Part shown: positions 57,284 through 64,000 of the stretch, in pieces
Layout of the letters: each line of letters opens with the position of its first letter
Numbering within the stretch: the stretch's first letter is position 1
NCBI GenBank assembly: GCA_026415655.1
Contig: JAOAGR010000002.1
Coordinates: 5 to 64,004 of the forward strand
Source of the DNA: Candidatus Dojkabacteria bacterium
Lineage (GTDB): Bacteria > Patescibacteriota > Dojkabacteria > JAOAGR01
Length of the DNA: 64,000 bases
Reading direction: 5' to 3'
The notes under the pieces: model-generated
What the model saw: the letters and a program-made list of their open reading frames with translations, nothing else
The model's database searches: none
Told to the model about the DNA's origin: nothing
Program-made: the position numbers and the translations under genes

Positions 57284-59443
57284 ATGATCAGAGATCTAAA
57301 TAGTCTTTTTTATCCCAAAAAAATAGCGATATATGGCGTTTCTCGAGATGAAAATGCCTTAGGAAATAGTATTTTACGTAATATTATTGAATCGGGATAT
57401 AAGGGAAAAATTTATCCTATTCATAAAGAGTTGGAAACTATATATAGTCTTTCTGTTTATAAAAATATTAAAGATATAAATGATACACTAGATTTGGTTT
57501 TGATTTCTGTAAAAGCTGATTTTGTATTGGATATATTACAACAATGCGTGTCTTTCGGAGTAAAAAATTTTTGTATCTATAGCGCTGGTTTCGGTGAAAT
57601 GGGCGATAGTGGAGATGAAAGAGAGAAAATACTTCAAGAATTTGCAGATCGACATCAACTTAATATTCTTGGTCCTAATTGTTTGGGATTTGTAAATAAT
57701 GACATCAAGCTCAATGCGACTTTTGCTCTAGCCAATAATAGAACAGGAAATCTAAGATTTATTACACAATCTGGTGCTATAGCTTCGAGTTTTTTTGATT
57801 GGGCCACCCATAACAAAATCCATTTTTCACATTTTGTCACTTTAGGTAATAAGACAGTTTTAAATGAAGTAGATATACTACGTTATTTTGATTCAATAGA
57901 TCGAGATGAAGCCAACACTGATACTGAATTAGCATCTGTCTGTCCTATTGGACTTTATTTAGAATCAATAAATAATGGTGTGGATTTTGTAGATATAACA
58001 TCAAAAATTTCCTTAAAACATCCTATCTTTTTATTGAAGCCAGGAAGGAGTACAACAGCCCAAAAAGCTATTTCGTCTCATACTGGTTCTATGGCTAATG
58101 ATGATCGGGTTTTAGATACCGCAATTCGAGAGTCAGGCATTTTAAGATGCGATGGTATAGAAGACTTTTTTGATTTGGCAAAGGCATTTGCTTGGGAAGA
58201 TGCTCCTTTAGGGCCAAATGTCGTTGTGCTTACTAATGCAGGAGGTCCTGCTGTGGTACTATCTGATGCTATTGAACAAAATGGACTAAAGTTAGTTTAC
58301 ATTGACGATAAAAATAAGCATAGACTTCAAAGCATATTACCACCATCAGCTAGTATTAATAATCCCATTGATGTATTGGGTGATGCACCAGCACTTCGGT
58401 ATATAGAAGCTTTAGATATTGTTTTATCACAAAGCAATGTTCATGCCGCAATACTTGTTCTCACTCCCCAGATAATGACTGAAATTTCCAAAACTGCGGA
58501 AATGATAGCTAGAATAGCTTCTATTCACAGAAAGACGGTTATCTGTTCTTTCATGGGTAGTAGCCAAATTGTTAATGGAGAAGAAATTTTAAACATGCAT
58601 AAAATACCAAATTTTAGGTATCCAGAAAGAGCAGCAAAAGTACTTGGCATAATGTACAGATGGAGGCAGTATGTAATTGATGCATTGCATGAAATGAAAT
58701 CTCCTATTTTATTTACTGATGAATCTGTACCAAATGATGGCGTTTTGCTTTTGTTTGATAACCTAAAAAATAAATATACAACACATCACAACCGTCAAAT
58801 AAATTTATCAAACTACGAGGTTAATGAAATTTTTACTCTTCATAATATAAATGTGCCAGCAAGTAGAGTTGTTACTAGTTTTGATGAATGTTTGGATTTT
58901 GTTAATACAAACGGGTTTCCTGTAGTCATGAAGATAATTTCAAGAAATCTCGTACATAAATTTGACGTTGGGGGTGTTATAACAGGTATCAATACACAAA
59001 GAAAATTAAAGAAAAGCTTTGATAAGATGAATAATAATATAAAAAGTCTTAATCTGACTGAAGCTTCGATACAGATTCAAAAACAATGCCAAAAAGGTGT
59101 TGAGCTCATAGTAGGGTTAAAAAGGGATCGATCATTTGGTGATTTGATTTTGTTTGGGATGGGAGGCACGTATGCGGAATTAATATCTGATATAAATATG
59201 GCATTATTACCATTGGATTATCATAAAATTAAGAGTCTCGTGCATTCATCAAGAGTATTTAGATTACTAAGTGGCTATCGTAACGGCGAAGTTTATGACC
59301 TAGAACCTCTTTATGATTTTCTTTTTAGATTTTCACAGCTATTAGAATTATATCCTCAAATACAAGAAATCGAGGTTAATCCGTTGATTGTAAATACTAA
59401 TGGAATATGGGCAGTTGATGGAAAGGCAGTATTGAGTACTTAA
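57284..59443 (+). CDS. acetate--CoA ligase (ADP-forming), fused alpha+beta subunits (NDP-forming acyl-CoA synthetase family)
   Basis: 719 aa; N-terminal CoA-binding Rossmann (KIAIYGVSRDENALGNSILRNI), CoA-ligase domain, C-terminal ATP-grasp domain. Confidence 0.8.
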   Translation: MIRDLNSLFYPKKIAIYGVSRDENALGNSILRNIIESGYKGKIYPIHKELETIYSLSVYKNIKDINDTLDLVLISVKADFVLDILQQCVSFGVKNFCIYSAGFGEMGDSGDEREKILQEFADRHQLNILGPNCLGFVNNDIKLNATFALANNRTGNLRFITQSGAIASSFFDWATHNKIHFSHFVTLGNKTVLNEVDILRYFDSIDRDEANTDTELASVCPIGLYLESINNGVDFVDITSKISLKHPIFLLKPGRSTTAQKAISSHTGSMANDDRVLDTAIRESGILRCDGIEDFFDLAKAFAWEDAPLGPNVVVLTNAGGPAVVLSDAIEQNGLKLVYIDDKNKHRLQSILPPSASINNPIDVLGDAPALRYIEALDIVLSQSNVHAAILVLTPQIMTEISKTAEMIARIASIHRKTVICSFMGSSQIVNGEEILNMHKIPNFRYPERAAKVLGIMYRWRQYVIDALHEMKSPILFTDESVPNDGVLLLFDNLKNKYTTHHNRQINLSNYEVNEIFTLHNINVPASRVVTSFDECLDFVNTNGFPVVMKIISRNLVHKFDVGGVITGINTQRKLKKSFDKMNNNIKSLNLTEASIQIQKQCQKGVELIVGLKRDRSFGDLILFGMGGTYAELISDINMALLPLDYHKIKSLVHSSRVFRLLSGYRNGEVYDLEPLYDFLFRFSQLLELYPQIQEIEVNPLIVNTNGIWAVDGKAVLST

Positions 59444-59451
59444 GAGATTAT

Positions 59452-60153
59452 TTGCTAGAATCCTCTAGCATGACATTATATTTTTTAGAAAATATAGAAC
59501 TTGTAATATTATTATTACTTTTAACATCTCTTGTTACGACTGTATTTCGCAATATTATTGGAATAAAGACTTTGAATATTTATATAGTATTAATTTATGC
59601 TGTAATTTTTGTGTCTAATGCGTACTACATCTTTTTTGTAAATACAGAGTTTGATTATTGGATAATTCTATTTTCTTTGTTACATATTTTCTTAATATTT
59701 ATTTTGCATTACATTACTCTCATTTTTTATAAAAAAATAGTGTCTGGATTAAATATTCATTATTATGCAAAAGTTTCTCTGGCAACGACCTCTTTCCTAT
59801 TATTAGTATATGGTATCTCTATGATATTCAATTTGACAGATCTATATACGAATAGATCCAAATTAGCACTAGTATTAACTATTTTATTGCTTTCATTTAC
59901 TCTAGAACCATTATCATCTTTACTTATGCAGAAAGGATTAAAAACTTTTAATGAAATATACAAAAATACACTTTTTGGATGTTTAATCATATCGATAATC
60001 ATTATTTTATTTATTACATACCTACATAATATGTTGAATATTTGGTTATTTTTTATATTTGCATTATTAATAATTATCTATTTAGGAAAGTTTGCAGGAC
60101 TAAGATTAACCGAGATATATAGATTTAGAGAGATTATCAAAAAAAATGATTAA
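59452..60153 (+). CDS. small polytopic (6-7 TM) membrane protein, partner of the downstream ATP-grasp/protease fusion
   Basis: 233 aa almost entirely hydrophobic helices; stop 4 nt before next gene. Confidence 0.55.
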   Translation: MLESSSMTLYFLENIELVILLLLLTSLVTTVFRNIIGIKTLNIYIVLIYAVIFVSNAYYIFFVNTEFDYWIILFSLLHIFLIFILHYITLIFYKKIVSGLNIHYYAKVSLATTSFLLLVYGISMIFNLTDLYTNRSKLALVLTILLLSFTLEPLSSLLMQKGLKTFNEIYKNTLFGCLIISIIIILFITYLHNMLNIWLFFIFALLIIIYLGKFAGLRLTEIYRFREIIKKND

Positions 60154-60156
60154 ATT

Positions 60157-61578
60157 ATGTTTTTTTTATCAAGACTCAAAACAATTCTTGGTATTAATGA
60201 GAGAAATTTGAAATATATTAGGCCATATAATCCTGTCAAATATAGAAAATATGCTGATAACAAATTATTAACAAAAAAAATTTTATTAAAAAATAATATT
60301 CCTACTCCAAAATTGATTGCTATTATAAAAGACTATGAGCGACTTGAAAAATTTAATTTTAATAAATTGCCAGATAGTATTGTTGTAAAACCACAAAAAG
60401 GATTTGGTGGAGAGGGAATATTAATCTTTTTTTCAAACGATAAGTATGGAAATTGGCTCAAAGCTGATAAAACAAGATATTCTATTGAAGATTTAAAAAA
60501 ACATATAAGAAACATATTAGATGGTAACTTTTCTCTTAAAAATGAACCCGATATTGCATTTTTCGAAGAAAGAGTAATGCTACATCCTGATCTTAAAAAA
60601 TATGCATCCAGAGGAATGCCTGATATACGTGTTATTGTTTTTAATCAGGTACCTATTATGGCACAGCTGCGATTGCCTACTTTTGAATGTGATGGAAAAG
60701 CCAATTTGCATGCTGGTGGAGTCGGGGTTGGCATAGATCTCACAAGCGGTGTTACTACAACTGCTGTGCATAAAGACAGAGTCATTGAATATCATCCTGA
60801 TAATAATTTACCTTTGCGAGGAATAGCTATTCCTTATTGGAATAAAATTTTAGAATTGGCAGTGAAGGCTCAGACCGTTTCTAAATTAGGTTTTGTTGGA
60901 GTTGATATCGTATTAGATCGTTTAAAGGGGCCTATGGTTTTAGAAATCAATGCACGACCGGGATTAGCGATCCAGATAGCAAATCAAGATGGAGTGAAAG
61001 ATAGACTGGAACGTATTGTGGGATTAAAAATTAAGAATCCGAGTCATGGTATAAAAGTAGGAAAAAATCTTTTTGGTGGAGAAATAGAAGAGGAGATTGA
61101 ACAATTTTCAGGAAAGAAAATTATCGGTTATGTTGAATATATTTATCTTTATGGAAGAAACGAAGAAAAAATAAAAATAAAATGTAAAAATGACACAGGT
61201 GCTTTTTATTCATCGATAGATGAAGATCTCGCTTCTATTCTTGGTTACAAAGAGGCAATTGTAGAATTTAAACAATTTATTAAAGATCACAACTTAACTG
61301 ATCTCAAAACTGCAAAAAAAATCAAAATCATTTGTGCTAAATTTTTTGAAGAGCATCCTGAAATACAGGATATTGCGTTGATCAAGCAGAGTAATGGCTT
61401 TGAAATACGCCCGATTATACGTTTGAAATTTGAATTAAATGATGTTGTCAAAGTCACAGATTTTACAGTAACGTCTAGAAAAAAGACTTCATTAATATAT
61501 AAAGCAATTCTTGGTCGTAAAGCGTTAAGAAAAAACTTTATCATAATACCAGCCGGAAAATTTAAATCTATCAAATAA
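60157..61578 (+). CDS. fusion protein: RimK-like (alpha-L-glutamate-ligase-related) ATP-grasp amidoligase + C-terminal retropepsin-like aspartyl protease domain
   Basis: 473 aa; N-terminal ~300 aa ATP-grasp (IVVKPQKGFGGEGI ... LEINARPG); C-terminal KIIGYVEYIYLYGRNEEKIKIKCKNDTGAFYSSIDEDLA (DTGA) ... LIYKAILGRKAL resembles the retropepsin-like domain annotated 'putative ATP-dependent zinc protease' found next to RimK-like ligases. Confidence 0.65.
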   Translation: MFFLSRLKTILGINERNLKYIRPYNPVKYRKYADNKLLTKKILLKNNIPTPKLIAIIKDYERLEKFNFNKLPDSIVVKPQKGFGGEGILIFFSNDKYGNWLKADKTRYSIEDLKKHIRNILDGNFSLKNEPDIAFFEERVMLHPDLKKYASRGMPDIRVIVFNQVPIMAQLRLPTFECDGKANLHAGGVGVGIDLTSGVTTTAVHKDRVIEYHPDNNLPLRGIAIPYWNKILELAVKAQTVSKLGFVGVDIVLDRLKGPMVLEINARPGLAIQIANQDGVKDRLERIVGLKIKNPSHGIKVGKNLFGGEIEEEIEQFSGKKIIGYVEYIYLYGRNEEKIKIKCKNDTGAFYSSIDEDLASILGYKEAIVEFKQFIKDHNLTDLKTAKKIKIICAKFFEEHPEIQDIALIKQSNGFEIRPIIRLKFELNDVVKVTDFTVTSRKKTSLIYKAILGRKALRKNFIIIPAGKFKSIK

Positions 61579-61620: not shown

Positions 61621-62628
61621 ATGAGATATTTGATGAGGAAATTTCATTTTTTTTTATTTTTAATTTTTATCTTCGTATTAATTAATGTTTTACTTAATCA
61701 GTTAAATAATGACGCCATTGCGTTATCAATATCAGGATCTAATATAAATACCCAAAATATACCAGTAAATACAAACACTTCACTAAGTGTTGTAATAAAT
61801 CCAAATCAAAATATAACATCGACAGATAATATTAAATTGACTCTTGGAGGATTAATAAATAATGTTGTTTTTGATTCATCAAATGTGCAGATATTAGGAT
61901 GTTCGGGTACTCCCTTAATCATTTCCTCGCCTATTAATACAATGCAACCCAATCTGATAGTTAGTGGAATCAATTGTCCCATAAATGGAAGTATTACTAC
62001 CAATTTAAGTAATAACTCATTAAATTCTGTAAGCATTCCTGGAGTATATTTGATTCAGGTATTTATAAATGGTGCTCTATACGATACATATACAATATCT
62101 GTTGGAGGTGATAATTCTGTGGTCATCTCTGGACAAATTAATTATAGATTAAGATTTCGTGTTTATCCAGAAAAAAGGACACCATCGTTTGGAAATTTCT
62201 CGAATGTTTATTTACTTCAGATCATAAATCCAATTACTAATACAATTGTCTATCAGAAATCTGGTATAGTAGCTGATAATAACGGTGAATTTGAAGAATT
62301 TATACCATCCCAATACCTACCACATGGAATATACAAAGTACGTATAAAAGGTATTTCACATCTATCAAAAGATTTTAATAATGTACAAATTAAAAATAAT
62401 ACTAACTTTTATAATTTTACGTCTGGAGGAAATTTTCTATTAGCGGGTGATACTTCTGTTATAGAAGATGATTTGATTAATTCTTTAGACATTAGTAGGT
62501 TGGAGAAAACACTGTTTACAAATATATTGAGAAGTGACCTTAATAAGGATGGGTACGTAAATTCGCTTGACATGTCAATACAGGCTTATAATATCAATAA
62601 ATATAATATTTATGGCGAATCCTTGTAA
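61621..62628 (+). CDS. secreted protein with C-terminal dockerin-like (Ca-binding, EF-hand-like) module
   Basis: 335 aa; N-terminal signal peptide; beta-rich Asn/Ser/Thr-rich body; C-terminal ...GDTSVIEDDLINSLDISRLEKTLFTNILRSDLNKDGYVNSLDMSIQAYNI with DLNKDGYVNSLD matching the dockerin Ca-binding loop. Confidence 0.55.
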   Translation: MRYLMRKFHFFLFLIFIFVLINVLLNQLNNDAIALSISGSNINTQNIPVNTNTSLSVVINPNQNITSTDNIKLTLGGLINNVVFDSSNVQILGCSGTPLIISSPINTMQPNLIVSGINCPINGSITTNLSNNSLNSVSIPGVYLIQVFINGALYDTYTISVGGDNSVVISGQINYRLRFRVYPEKRTPSFGNFSNVYLLQIINPITNTIVYQKSGIVADNNGEFEEFIPSQYLPHGIYKVRIKGISHLSKDFNNVQIKNNTNFYNFTSGGNFLLAGDTSVIEDDLINSLDISRLEKTLFTNILRSDLNKDGYVNSLDMSIQAYNINKYNIYGESL

Positions 62629-64000
62629 TAAAAATTTAAGTATTATTTTACTTTTTAGTATCTTTATTATTTTTGTACTTTTTTTGAGTTTAAATTTCAG
62701 GATTTATGCTCTTACGAAAAATGGACAGTTTTATTTTGAAAATGATGTGTATGAAGTACCTCAAAATTGTGAGTATCCTCTTAAGCTGATAGTGGATCCG
62801 GGATCAAATCTAAGCAATGCTGCAGATGTTATATTAAAGTACAATCCAAATGATATTGAGATTATAGATAGTATTCAAAATGTTCCAGGAAAACAGATAC
62901 AGCCGGGAAATGCATATGAATATTATCCTTCAACAGGTAATATTGTGGACGAAACCAGTGGTACAATAAGACTTGTTGGTGTTTCTTATGACAAAATCCT
63001 TGACAAAAAAGGAGTTTTCACCATTATCAAAATCAAATTGAAGTCTAATACTGCAAATATAAATATTGTATTTGATGGGATTGATAAGACGACAGATAGT
63101 AATATTGCCGAATATAATTCGAGTATAGATATTCTTTCACAAGTAAAAAGCGTACAATTGAAAAAATCTAATAGCGCATCTTGTCCGCAAGAAGACGTTG
63201 TTCCACCAAATATATTGGTAAATTCTAGTTATGTACAGATGAAAAATGGTGGTAAGTTGGTATTTATTGTCTCTGATAATCTGTCTGGTATAAATCTAAA
63301 TTCATTAAAAGTTGTTGTAGGAGATAAAGTTTATGATTATGGATCGAACAGTATTGGTATTATTCCAGTAAGTAATGGATACCAGATAGAGTTGGTACTT
63401 GATGATATATCTTTTGATAGTGACTTTATATCATTTAGTATTATAGTTTCTGATAAAGCCGGAAATGTAAACAGTGTTAATACTAATTTAACAGAGGCAA
63501 AACAGAACATGACAGAATGTAACTGTCCTAGTATACAAAACAACGCAGACAACGATTTAGACGAGGATAAAAGTGACCTCTATATCGCGCAAAATCAATA
63601 TCGCAACTTAAATGAACAAATTTTTGGATTTTTACCACAAAATTTATCATTTGTATCAGATGCCGGATTTATTGCCCCATTTACTCTTGCCATAACCTTA
63701 CCGCTTCTATATTTTATTTCGGCGTTAGTTTCTTCATTTTTGAGCGGCGGATTTTTGGTTCCATTTTTATTGAGCCTTTTTCGTAGGAAAGGAAATATTA
63801 AAGTACTGGATTCTATTTCTAAAGAAGGTATCCCTTTTGTTAAAGTAAAAGTTTATCAGAGAGGTTATGATAAAGTTATAAAACAATATGTTACATCACC
63901 TTTTGGTTCATTTGATTTTGACCTTTATGATGGATTTTATACATTAGAATTGGAAAAACGTGGATACCAGAATCTTAGATACGAACTTAATCATACTGAT
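62612..64000 (+). CDS. membrane-anchored protein with N-terminal cohesin-like domain (partial, runs off contig end; not in ORF track)
   Basis: Hand translation from ATG 62612, open to 64000 (463 codons, in frame with ATG 63509): MANPCNKNLSIILLFSIFIIFVLFLSLNFRIYA (signal/anchor) ... ADVILKYNPNDIEIIDSIQNVPGKQIQPG ... SGTIRLVGVSYDKILDKKGVFTIIKIKLKSNTANINIVF resembling cohesin motifs; later a double TM segment and a beta-sandwich-like YQRGYDKVIKQY region. Confidence 0.5.
   Translation, partial: MANPCNKNLSIILLFSIFIIFVLFLSLNFRIYALTKNGQFYFENDVYEVPQNCEYPLKLIVDPGSNLSNAADVILKYNPNDIEIIDSIQNVPGKQIQPGNAYEYYPSTGNIVDETSGTIRLVGVSYDKILDKKGVFTIIKIKLKSNTANINIVFDGIDKTTDSNIAEYNSSIDILSQVKSVQLKKSNSASCPQEDVVPPNILVNSSYVQMKNGGKLVFIVSDNLSGINLNSLKVVVGDKVYDYGSNSIGIIPVSNGYQIELVLDDISFDSDFISFSIIVSDKAGNVNSVNTNLTEAKQNMTECNCPSIQNNADNDLDEDKSDLYIAQNQYRNLNEQIFGFLPQNLSFVSDAGFIAPFTLAITLPLLYFISALVSSFLSGGFLVPFLLSLFRRKGNIKVLDSISKEGIPFVKVKVYQRGYDKVIKQYVTSPFGSFDFDLYDGFYTLELEKRGYQNLRYELNHTD

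Follow-up and report, generated by a model that had tools for sequence, protein, structure and literature searches.

Overlapping genes for an X-dockerin protein and a cohesin-bearing membrane protein: a putative surface complex of Patescibacteria

The stretch analysed here, hereafter the window, comprises 64,000 nucleotides of contig JAOAGR010000002.1 of Candidatus Dojkabacteria bacterium (assembly GCA_026415655.1, positions 5 to 64,004 of the forward strand), and it ends in two overlapping plus-strand genes, gene A (61621–62628) and gene B (62612–64000, cut by the window end). Gene A encodes a 335-aa protein with an export-type N-terminus and a C-terminal X module plus dockerin, gene B encodes a predicted membrane protein with an N-terminal cohesin module, and the order of the two genes is kept in distant relatives. 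The two products, proteins A and B, probably constitute a two-gene cassette that builds a 1:1 non-cellulosomal cohesin–dockerin complex on the cell surface of Patescibacteria (the candidate phyla radiation, CPR), in which A would bind to B in a Ca2+-dependent manner.

The X-dockerin of protein A and the cohesin of protein B

Gene A has 16 homologues, and its product is identical to protein P0006. Its dockerin was assigned to aa 272–332 (62434–62616, +), where the initial annotation, made from the letters of the window only, had seen the 335-aa open reading frame (ORF) end in two short segments; these were located at aa 276–299 (GDTSVIEDDLINSLDISRLEKTLF, nt 62446–62517) and aa 305–325 (SDLNKDGYVNSLDMSIQAYNI, nt 62533–62595), respectively. 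The second had been described as a near-perfect dockerin loop plus helix, and its loop (DLNKDGYVNSLD, aa 306–317, nt 62536–62571) is indeed canonical: D306, L307, N308, D310, N314, L316 and D317 are invariant in the family, and the pattern D.[ND].[DN]G.[IVL][NDST]..D occurs once, at this loop, when all 466 six-frame ORFs of 40 aa or more in the window are considered. A helix at aa 315–328 was predicted by AlphaFold2 (AF2) with low confidence. The loop of segment 1 (GDTSVIEDDLINSLD, nt 62446–62490) is non-canonical; it keeps loop positions 5, 8, 9 and 12 as D283, I286, N287 and D290, all of which are invariant, and a near-invariant G-D-T lies two residues upstream of it. Judged from its residues, segment 1 suggests an extended loop like that of the Acetivibrio cellulolyticus ScaA X-module–dockerin dyad (XDoc), in which the first dockerin segment likewise has an 'AGD...D..IN..D' extended loop. 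Furthermore, N-S-L-D-x-S is common to both segments, an internal symmetry that is typical of dockerins.

Profile searches pointed to the same class. The Pfam model Dockerin_1 (PF00404) matched all 16 gene A family members at E≤0.01 (best 1.8e-7), and P0008–P0010 bear precomputed PF00404 annotations. When a profile of the last ~60 residues was searched against the Protein Data Bank (PDB), 24 matches were obtained, 24/24 of them dockerins (best 1daq, 7.3e-6), and both segments were covered only in the type II X-dockerins 5k39_B, 5g5d_B, 2b59_B and 3kcp_A. With a profile of the conserved C-terminal ~150 residues, the best match was the A. cellulolyticus ScaA type II XDoc 4wi0_B (E=0.001), in an alignment that spans X module and dockerin, followed by the CipA XDocs 2b59_B (E=0.018), 5g5d_B and 3kcp_A; the single gene A sequence retrieved 4u3s_B (E=0.004). 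The X-like immunoglobulin-like (Ig-like) module occupies aa 176–271 (62146–62433, +), has invariant columns of its own and co-aligns with the dockerin to the X modules of the type II XDocs 4u3s_B, 4wi0_B and 2b59_B. Each of the 16 homologues, like each of the loci examined, has both the X module and the dockerin. By sequence, the C-terminus of protein A is thus an X-module plus dockerin of the type-II-like kind.

The X-like module of the family has no Pfam entry, as judged from a Pfam scan of the family. Its motifs YPEKRxP...N (aa 181–192, nt 62161–62196) and SHLxK (aa 246–250, nt 62356–62370) are invariant in all homologues, a conservation that exceeds the need of a simple spacer domain, and they could mark a ligand site, a cohesin contact site or an intramolecular cross-link site.

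The cohesin module of gene B was delimited to aa 35–195 (62714–63196, +) by AF2 modelling, Foldseek and transitive Pfam matches (PF00963). A profile (A3) of protein B aa 35–195 and four homologues retrieved seven further proteins with E-values from 1.8e-29 to 4e-5, and five of them, P0022 (1.8e-29), P0023 (2.4e-12), P0024, P0026 and P0028, each pass the Pfam Cohesin gathering cut-off of 24.1 bits in a direct scan. The AF2 model of the module, computed from a 12-sequence alignment, reached a predicted local distance difference test score (pLDDT) of 92 and a predicted template modelling score (pTM) of 0.88. In the Foldseek search against the PDB, ranks 1–40 were all type I, II and III cohesins (E 3.6e-8 to 1.7e-4; template modelling scores 0.46–0.67 normalised by the query and up to 0.76 by the target), with type I and type II cohesins matching equally well, and the first non-cohesin, the CLIPPER adhesin domain, appeared at rank 41. 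Since a model with a pLDDT of 92 matches 40 cohesins before any other fold, the cohesin fold of the N-terminal module, a nine-stranded beta-sandwich (jelly-roll), is established at the level of the predicted structure. The initial annotation had proposed a cohesin-like region after the signal helix, and the stretch that it quoted lies within this module at aa 68–86.

The conserved motifs SNAADV, GN.V, G.IRL and F.G...T.DSNIA lie on or beside strands of the model that by order would be strands 3, 5, 6 and 8, the strands of the 8-3-6-5 sheet by which cohesins bind dockerins. The sole helix of the model (residues 72–75) precedes strand 5, and a loop at 119–129 breaks a possible strand 8. Dockerin and cohesin are the best-conserved parts of proteins A and B. 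An exhaustive HMMER search with the cohesin profile yielded 1,036 representatives of 50% identity clusters at E≤1e-3, 300 of them at E≤1e-10, and in nearly all matches the domain sits at residues ~25–190 of a 450–800-aa protein. Five larger proteins (P0029–P0031, P0049 and P0058; 1,250–1,520 aa) carry two cohesin-like stretches each, and in four of these proteins the best-scoring stretch lies away from the N-terminus, at residues ~490–640; by this layout they may be multi-cohesin, scaffoldin-like relatives.

Conservation of the gene pair and layout of protein B

The two genes overlap by 17 nt, the ATG of gene B lying at 62612 and the TAA of gene A at 62626–62628, as the initial annotation had stated. 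Recomputing the frame likewise agreed with its account of a next gene open from 62612 to the end: no stop occurs in the 463 codons up to base 64000. Extending the contig, which had been suggested there as a check, was achieved through a near-identical contig, on which the complete gene B product has 534 aa (P0001) and differs by one substitution (I248F); the window lacks the last 71 residues, and the full gene would end ~216 nt beyond it. Within the window, the family hidden Markov models (HMMs) for dockerin, X plus dockerin and cohesin match only the gene A and gene B ORFs.

The order of an XDoc gene followed by a cohesin membrane protein gene, overlapping or a few nt apart, was found in loci L001 (a Dojkabacteria metagenome-assembled genome, MAG, with 38% identity), L003, L004 and L006 (the nearest NCBI genome). 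In an independent test, metagenome contigs were fished with the gene A family alone, and the six-frame ORFs of the 25 loci obtained were searched with the cohesin HMM; 23 of the 25 were informative, that is, they had at least 200 nt downstream of the XDoc. In 21 of these 23, a same-strand ORF with a cohesin begins between −50 and +33 nt relative to the stop of the XDoc gene; one more, L015, where a cohesin starts and then runs into a chimeric high-GC junction, brings the total to 22/23. At the level of domains, the dockerin/cohesin pair proposed in the initial annotation is thereby upheld by near-invariant adjacency or overlap in distant relatives, and it is a widespread cassette rather than a one-off. 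A scan of genome contigs with the cohesin profile gave 3 loci only, the derived patterns being too specific.

By source name, where one is given, these genes belong to Candidatus Dojkabacteria, to the 'Patescibacteria group' and to one MAG with the label Saccharibacteria, and a more distant variant comes from Daviesbacteria. Few of the cohesin-family clusters are source-named, and those that are come from Dojkabacteria, with one labelled only 'bacterium'. The distant variant lies in Candidatus Daviesbacteria (MFDN01000009.1, locus L008, 2–5600), where two ORFs that bear dockerins, one of 469 aa that is truncated at the locus start and one of 915 aa, precede two consecutive small cohesin ORFs (220 and 245 aa) on the same strand.

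Protein B begins with a signal peptide (aa 1–33, ...RIYA/LT, 62612–62710, +), assigned by hydropathy, and AxA-type signal-peptidase sites immediately precede the cohesin module across the family, by which cleavage appears likely. The cohesin is followed by an Ig-like domain (aa ~196–298, 63197–63505, +), which is of the Big_5 type by homology, being aligned to a region of P0005 that matches PF13205 (E=9.5e-7), and by a linker with an invariant ECNCP cysteine motif (63515–63529, +). A hydrophobic membrane region of 39 aa (aa 352–390, 63665–63781, +; assigned by hydropathy and followed by RRKG) then leads into a CarboxypepD_reg-like beta-sandwich (aa ~391–480, from 63782 and cut at 64000, +), for which weak Pfam matches were obtained in the window protein and in P0004; in P0001, two more transmembrane helices, a C-terminal membrane hairpin, come after this domain. 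The description of a double transmembrane segment plus beta-sandwich behind the cohesin was therefore right as to a hydrophobic region and a sandwich, while the supposed double segment is one 39-aa stretch and the intervening Ig-like domain of ~100 aa had been missed. In a Pfam scan of 69 representatives of the B family, Big_5 was matched in 38, CarboxypepD_reg in 39 (best 3.8e-19) and Cohesin (PF00963) in 18, by which the architecture holds across the family.

The first hydrophobic region has a median length of 32 aa in the family (range 22–42 aa), with a net charge of +1.4 after it and −0.4 before it. As a single helix, it would put the CarboxypepD_reg-like domain into the cytoplasm. Neither surface-layer homology (SLH) repeats nor an LPXTG motif was found in protein B, in which hydrophobic membrane regions flank the CarboxypepD_reg-like domain instead.

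Four cysteines are invariant in the B family: C53 (62768–62770) and C191 (63182–63184) flank the cohesin domain, and C303 (63518–63520) and C305 (63524–63526) belong to the ECNCP motif. These residues may be joined by disulfides, which would suit a position outside the cytoplasm. In one relative (L004:5624–7948), the stalk that joins the Ig-like domain to the membrane region consists of ~300 aa of Asp-rich D-x-D-G-D-G-[IV]-[PV]-N repeats that resemble thrombospondin type 3 Ca2+-binding repeats, and this composition suggests a stalk of variable length and Ca2+-dependent character.

A putative surface complex and the alternative readings

The arrangement that we propose from these modules is as follows. 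Protein B would be exported via a cleavable signal peptide, the cohesin thereby becoming the mature N-terminus on an Ig-like stalk, and B would be kept in the membrane by its C-terminal hydrophobic segments. Protein A would also be exported, bearing the type-II-like XDoc at its C-terminus, and the dockerin, stabilised by Ca2+ and the X module, would plug into the cohesin of B and fix A on the cell. The cargo of A would be one or two Ig-like domains or, in some relatives, larger adhesin-like repeats, and translational coupling of the overlapping genes would favour a 1:1 stoichiometry. Pfam and NCBIfam scans found no glycoside hydrolase, carbohydrate-binding module (CBM) or other catalytic domain in A, B or the scanned family members, and NCBIfam gave no match at all for protein A or protein B. 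As a catalytic module is missing, the complex would be structural or adhesive and not degradative, and such a role at the surface, possibly in the envelope or in attachment, is the reading that needs the fewest assumptions. A more far-reaching version makes the cassette a lineage-wide envelope organ of the Dojkabacteria group, in which a polytopic B with a cytoplasmic CarboxypepD_reg-like domain couples an X-dockerin 'tip', possibly in contact with a host, to the cell interior, perhaps together with the product of a third gene described below. We consider this version unlikely; were it true, the cassette would represent a novel type of device for attachment or signalling that uses a cohesin–dockerin joint.

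Among known systems, the pair most resembles the type II cohesin/XDoc anchoring pairs, namely the Clostridium thermocellum CipA XDoc with SdbA, OlpB or Orf2p and the A. cellulolyticus ScaA XDoc with ScaB (PDB 2b59, 4u3s, 4wi0, 5k39). In those pairs, too, a C-terminal X-module–dockerin dyad meets a partner that bears an N-terminal cohesin and whose job is cell attachment; the best alignments of protein A cover both X module and dockerin, and type II cohesins are among the top fold matches of protein B. In contrast to those pairs, the anchor of B is an integral-membrane region with a CarboxypepD_reg-like domain and not SLH repeats or a sortase signal, protein A lacks cohesins, a CBM and enzymes, the genes belong to a CPR bacterium, and the helix between strands 6 and 7 and the beta-flaps (strands 4 and 8) of type II cohesins are not clearly present in the B model. 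By analogy, B would resemble the single-cohesin anchoring scaffoldin SdbA in function, with a membrane anchor in place of the SLH repeats, and A and B together could be viewed as what is left when the type II 'anchoring' half of a cellulosome is pared down to the joint.

Cohesins and dockerins also occur apart from cellulosomes. Archaeoglobus fulgidus is a non-cellulosomal example, a survey by Peer et al. in 2009 is said to have covered such modules outside cellulosomes, and the matches of this analysis include 2w1n and 2ozn, which we take to be structures of the Clostridium perfringens GH84C cohesin with toxin-complex dockerins. As in those cases, the present modules would serve as a general protein–protein clip outside plant cell-wall degradation; unlike them, they are encoded by neighbouring, overlapping genes, a pair that is kept as a fixed cassette throughout a large lineage. 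Among CPR bacteria, the Saccharibacterium Southlakia epibionticum, which is cultivated, has an essential dockerin-domain envelope protein, SEML1_0315, with Ig-like domains, a dockerin and a proposed role in host interaction (Wang et al. 2023, PMC10633639). By its description it is set apart from gene A, being a 927-aa stand-alone gene beside a tRNA with no adjacent cohesin gene listed (PMC10633639).

Several observations weigh against a docking pair displayed at the surface. The window protein scores 21.2 bits with PF00404 (E=3.3e-4), 1.7 below the cut-off of 22.9; loop positions 1 and 3 of segment 1 are S and I instead of the canonical Asp/Asn; and the AF2 pLDDT in the gene A dockerin (aa 275–335) is 33–51, so that the dockerin assignment rests on sequence evidence. 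For protein B, the N-terminal domain has no direct Pfam cohesin match and phmmer retrieved nothing for it from the PDB, and A3 and a broader profile matched cohesins only, with weak E-values of 0.04–0.7. HMM searches and structure prediction had been named as checks in the initial annotation; that for PF00404 came out in favour of the dockerin through the 16/16 family matches, that for PF00963 failed on protein B directly and succeeded through its relatives, and modelling bore out the cohesin and left the dockerin poorly modelled. Many short-form gene A homologues, moreover, have a long hydrophobic N-terminus with no obvious signal-peptidase site, which complicates simple 'display'. The claim that protein A is secreted accordingly stands for the exported-type N-terminal helix and has to be qualified for those homologues, which look N-terminally membrane-anchored; from these sequences, protein A may itself be membrane-tethered, and the joint would then link two membrane proteins. 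Finally, adjacency is not obligatory, as L032, the only exception among the 23 informative loci, has no neighbouring cohesin.

The last point leads to the possibility that dockerin and cohesin are both genuine and are not partners of each other, each binding to proteins encoded elsewhere in a larger scaffold network, with their adjacency reflecting co-regulation. The XDoc on a larger protein without a neighbouring cohesin in L032, the two cohesin-like stretches in P0029–P0031, P0049 and P0058, the two small cohesin genes beside two dockerin-bearing proteins in the Daviesbacteria locus and the restriction of the genome view to 64 kb would all fit with this. We nevertheless regard it as improbable, given that the pair is adjacent or overlapping in 22/23 informative loci across deep divergence and that the window holds one copy of each module; additional dockerin proteins could, besides, share the same cohesin. 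A likeness at the level of fold only would involve no docking: A would end in a generic EF-hand-like tail that binds Ca2+ and, for example, stabilises the Ig-like domain or attaches to glycans, and B would start with a beta-sandwich of a generic adhesin type. This would account for the non-canonical first loop and for window proteins below or outside Pfam thresholds, and beta-sandwiches are promiscuous in fold searches, as the CLIPPER adhesin domain at rank 41 illustrates. Dockerins without cohesin partners are also reportedly common in non-cellulosomal genomes, according to the same survey by Peer et al. Forty cohesins in a row before any other fold, dockerins as all 24 PDB sequence matches of the dockerin profile, and the N-S-L-D-x-S recognition register kept in both segments speak against a merely generic fold, and, if they did not interact, the strict co-occurrence of exactly these two modules would be difficult to account for; this alternative thus appears quite improbable to us. 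A minimal cellulosome-like system for polysaccharide degradation has in its favour that Dojkabacteria MAGs were flagged as possible carbohydrate degraders in a survey counting cohesin and dockerin genes (PMC7038595). With one cohesin per protein and no second dockerin protein in the window, it has very little likelihood in our estimation, and we rejected it on the lack of any catalytic or CBM module and the single cohesin and dockerin in 64 kb.

For the preferred reading, a 1:1 clip between A and B, the modules and the presumed docking principle are already known, while the novelty lies in the lineage, in the fixed operon and in an anchor that combines a single cohesin with an integral-membrane part and a CarboxypepD_reg-like domain. 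Full-text literature searches turned up no account of a cohesin/X-dockerin cassette from CPR bacteria. The pair has been overlooked because public records name its members 'hypothetical', 'Ig-like domain-containing' or 'carboxypeptidase regulatory-like domain-containing' and never cohesin or dockerin. Cohesin–dockerin pairs are among the strongest protein–protein clips and are widely used in biotechnology. Here the clip would be stripped to one cohesin and one X-dockerin in an enzyme-free, two-gene cassette, with a mode of membrane attachment not seen in cellulosomes. The surface biology of Patescibacteria, host attachment included, is poorly charted, and the cassette offers a concrete, testable two-protein complex; it is also relevant to how type II anchoring in cellulosomes arose, and its family offers new orthogonal cohesin–dockerin pairs.

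Other parts of protein A and neighbouring genes

Protein A starts with a hydrophobic helix (aa 1–34, 61621–61722, +) that ends in AIA/LS and may be a signal peptide or a signal anchor; hydropathy places it at aa 3–30 and the AF2 model at aa 2–29, and the AxA motif points to cleavage after AIA. A beta-sandwich of aa ~35–170 follows (61723–62130, +; AF2 strands, pLDDT 57–86), an orphan domain confined to 'long-form' homologues: in the alignment of the 16 homologues, it is common to the window protein and P0007–P0010 only and lacking in most others. The top Foldseek match was 2w1n, a construct of cohesin plus FN3, by which the domain was considered as a second cohesin. This candidate was rejected, because hhalign against the B cohesin profile gave a probability of 0.2%, the cohesin HMM had no match on A, and no relevant PDB sequence match was obtained for the domain. 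The full-length AF2 model of gene A is of moderate quality (mean pLDDT 67), and Foldseek with it returned generic tandem Ig-like pilins and adhesins at template modelling scores of ~0.2, which were not used for function.

Larger adhesin-like repeats carry the XDoc in L025, L032 and L033. In L032 (304–2637), a 777-aa protein with cadherin/VCBS-like repeat modules has this X-dockerin dyad at its C-terminus, and a convergently oriented gene for an RluA-like pseudouridine synthase comes next; from this layout, the XDoc is also a portable tag on large adhesin-like cargo.

Directly 5′ of gene A, three same-strand genes occupy 57284–61578 (+). They encode a 719-aa ADP-forming acetyl-CoA synthetase-like protein, a 233-aa membrane protein with a weak 7TM_transglut match, and a 473-aa protein in which an ATP-grasp_ST (alpha-L-glutamate-ligase-like) domain is fused to a RimB/retropepsin-like peptidase domain. 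This trio is not kept beside the cassette in L001 and is therefore probably unrelated to it.

Beyond the window end, a third gene comes right after the cohesin gene in L034 (7612–8775, +), where it starts 6 nt past the cohesin-gene stop, and in L001 (10069–11250), L006 (6488–7651) and L009 (6972–8153). Its product, a polytopic membrane protein of 387–396 aa, has an extracytoplasmic domain at the N-terminus and matches nothing in Pfam; the versions of the window's strain and of the Dojkabacteria MAG share 29% identity (E=1e-54). As the gene is present in 4 distinct genomes and absent from more distant loci, the cassette may comprise three genes in the clade of the window. Shortly 3′ of the cassette and on the opposite strand, a XerC/D-type tyrosine recombinase (Phage_int_SAM_1 plus Phage_integrase) is encoded in the window's strain (L034:8877–9749, −) and in the Dojkabacteria MAG (L001:13700–14566, −), a neighbourhood that is probably ordinary conserved synteny.

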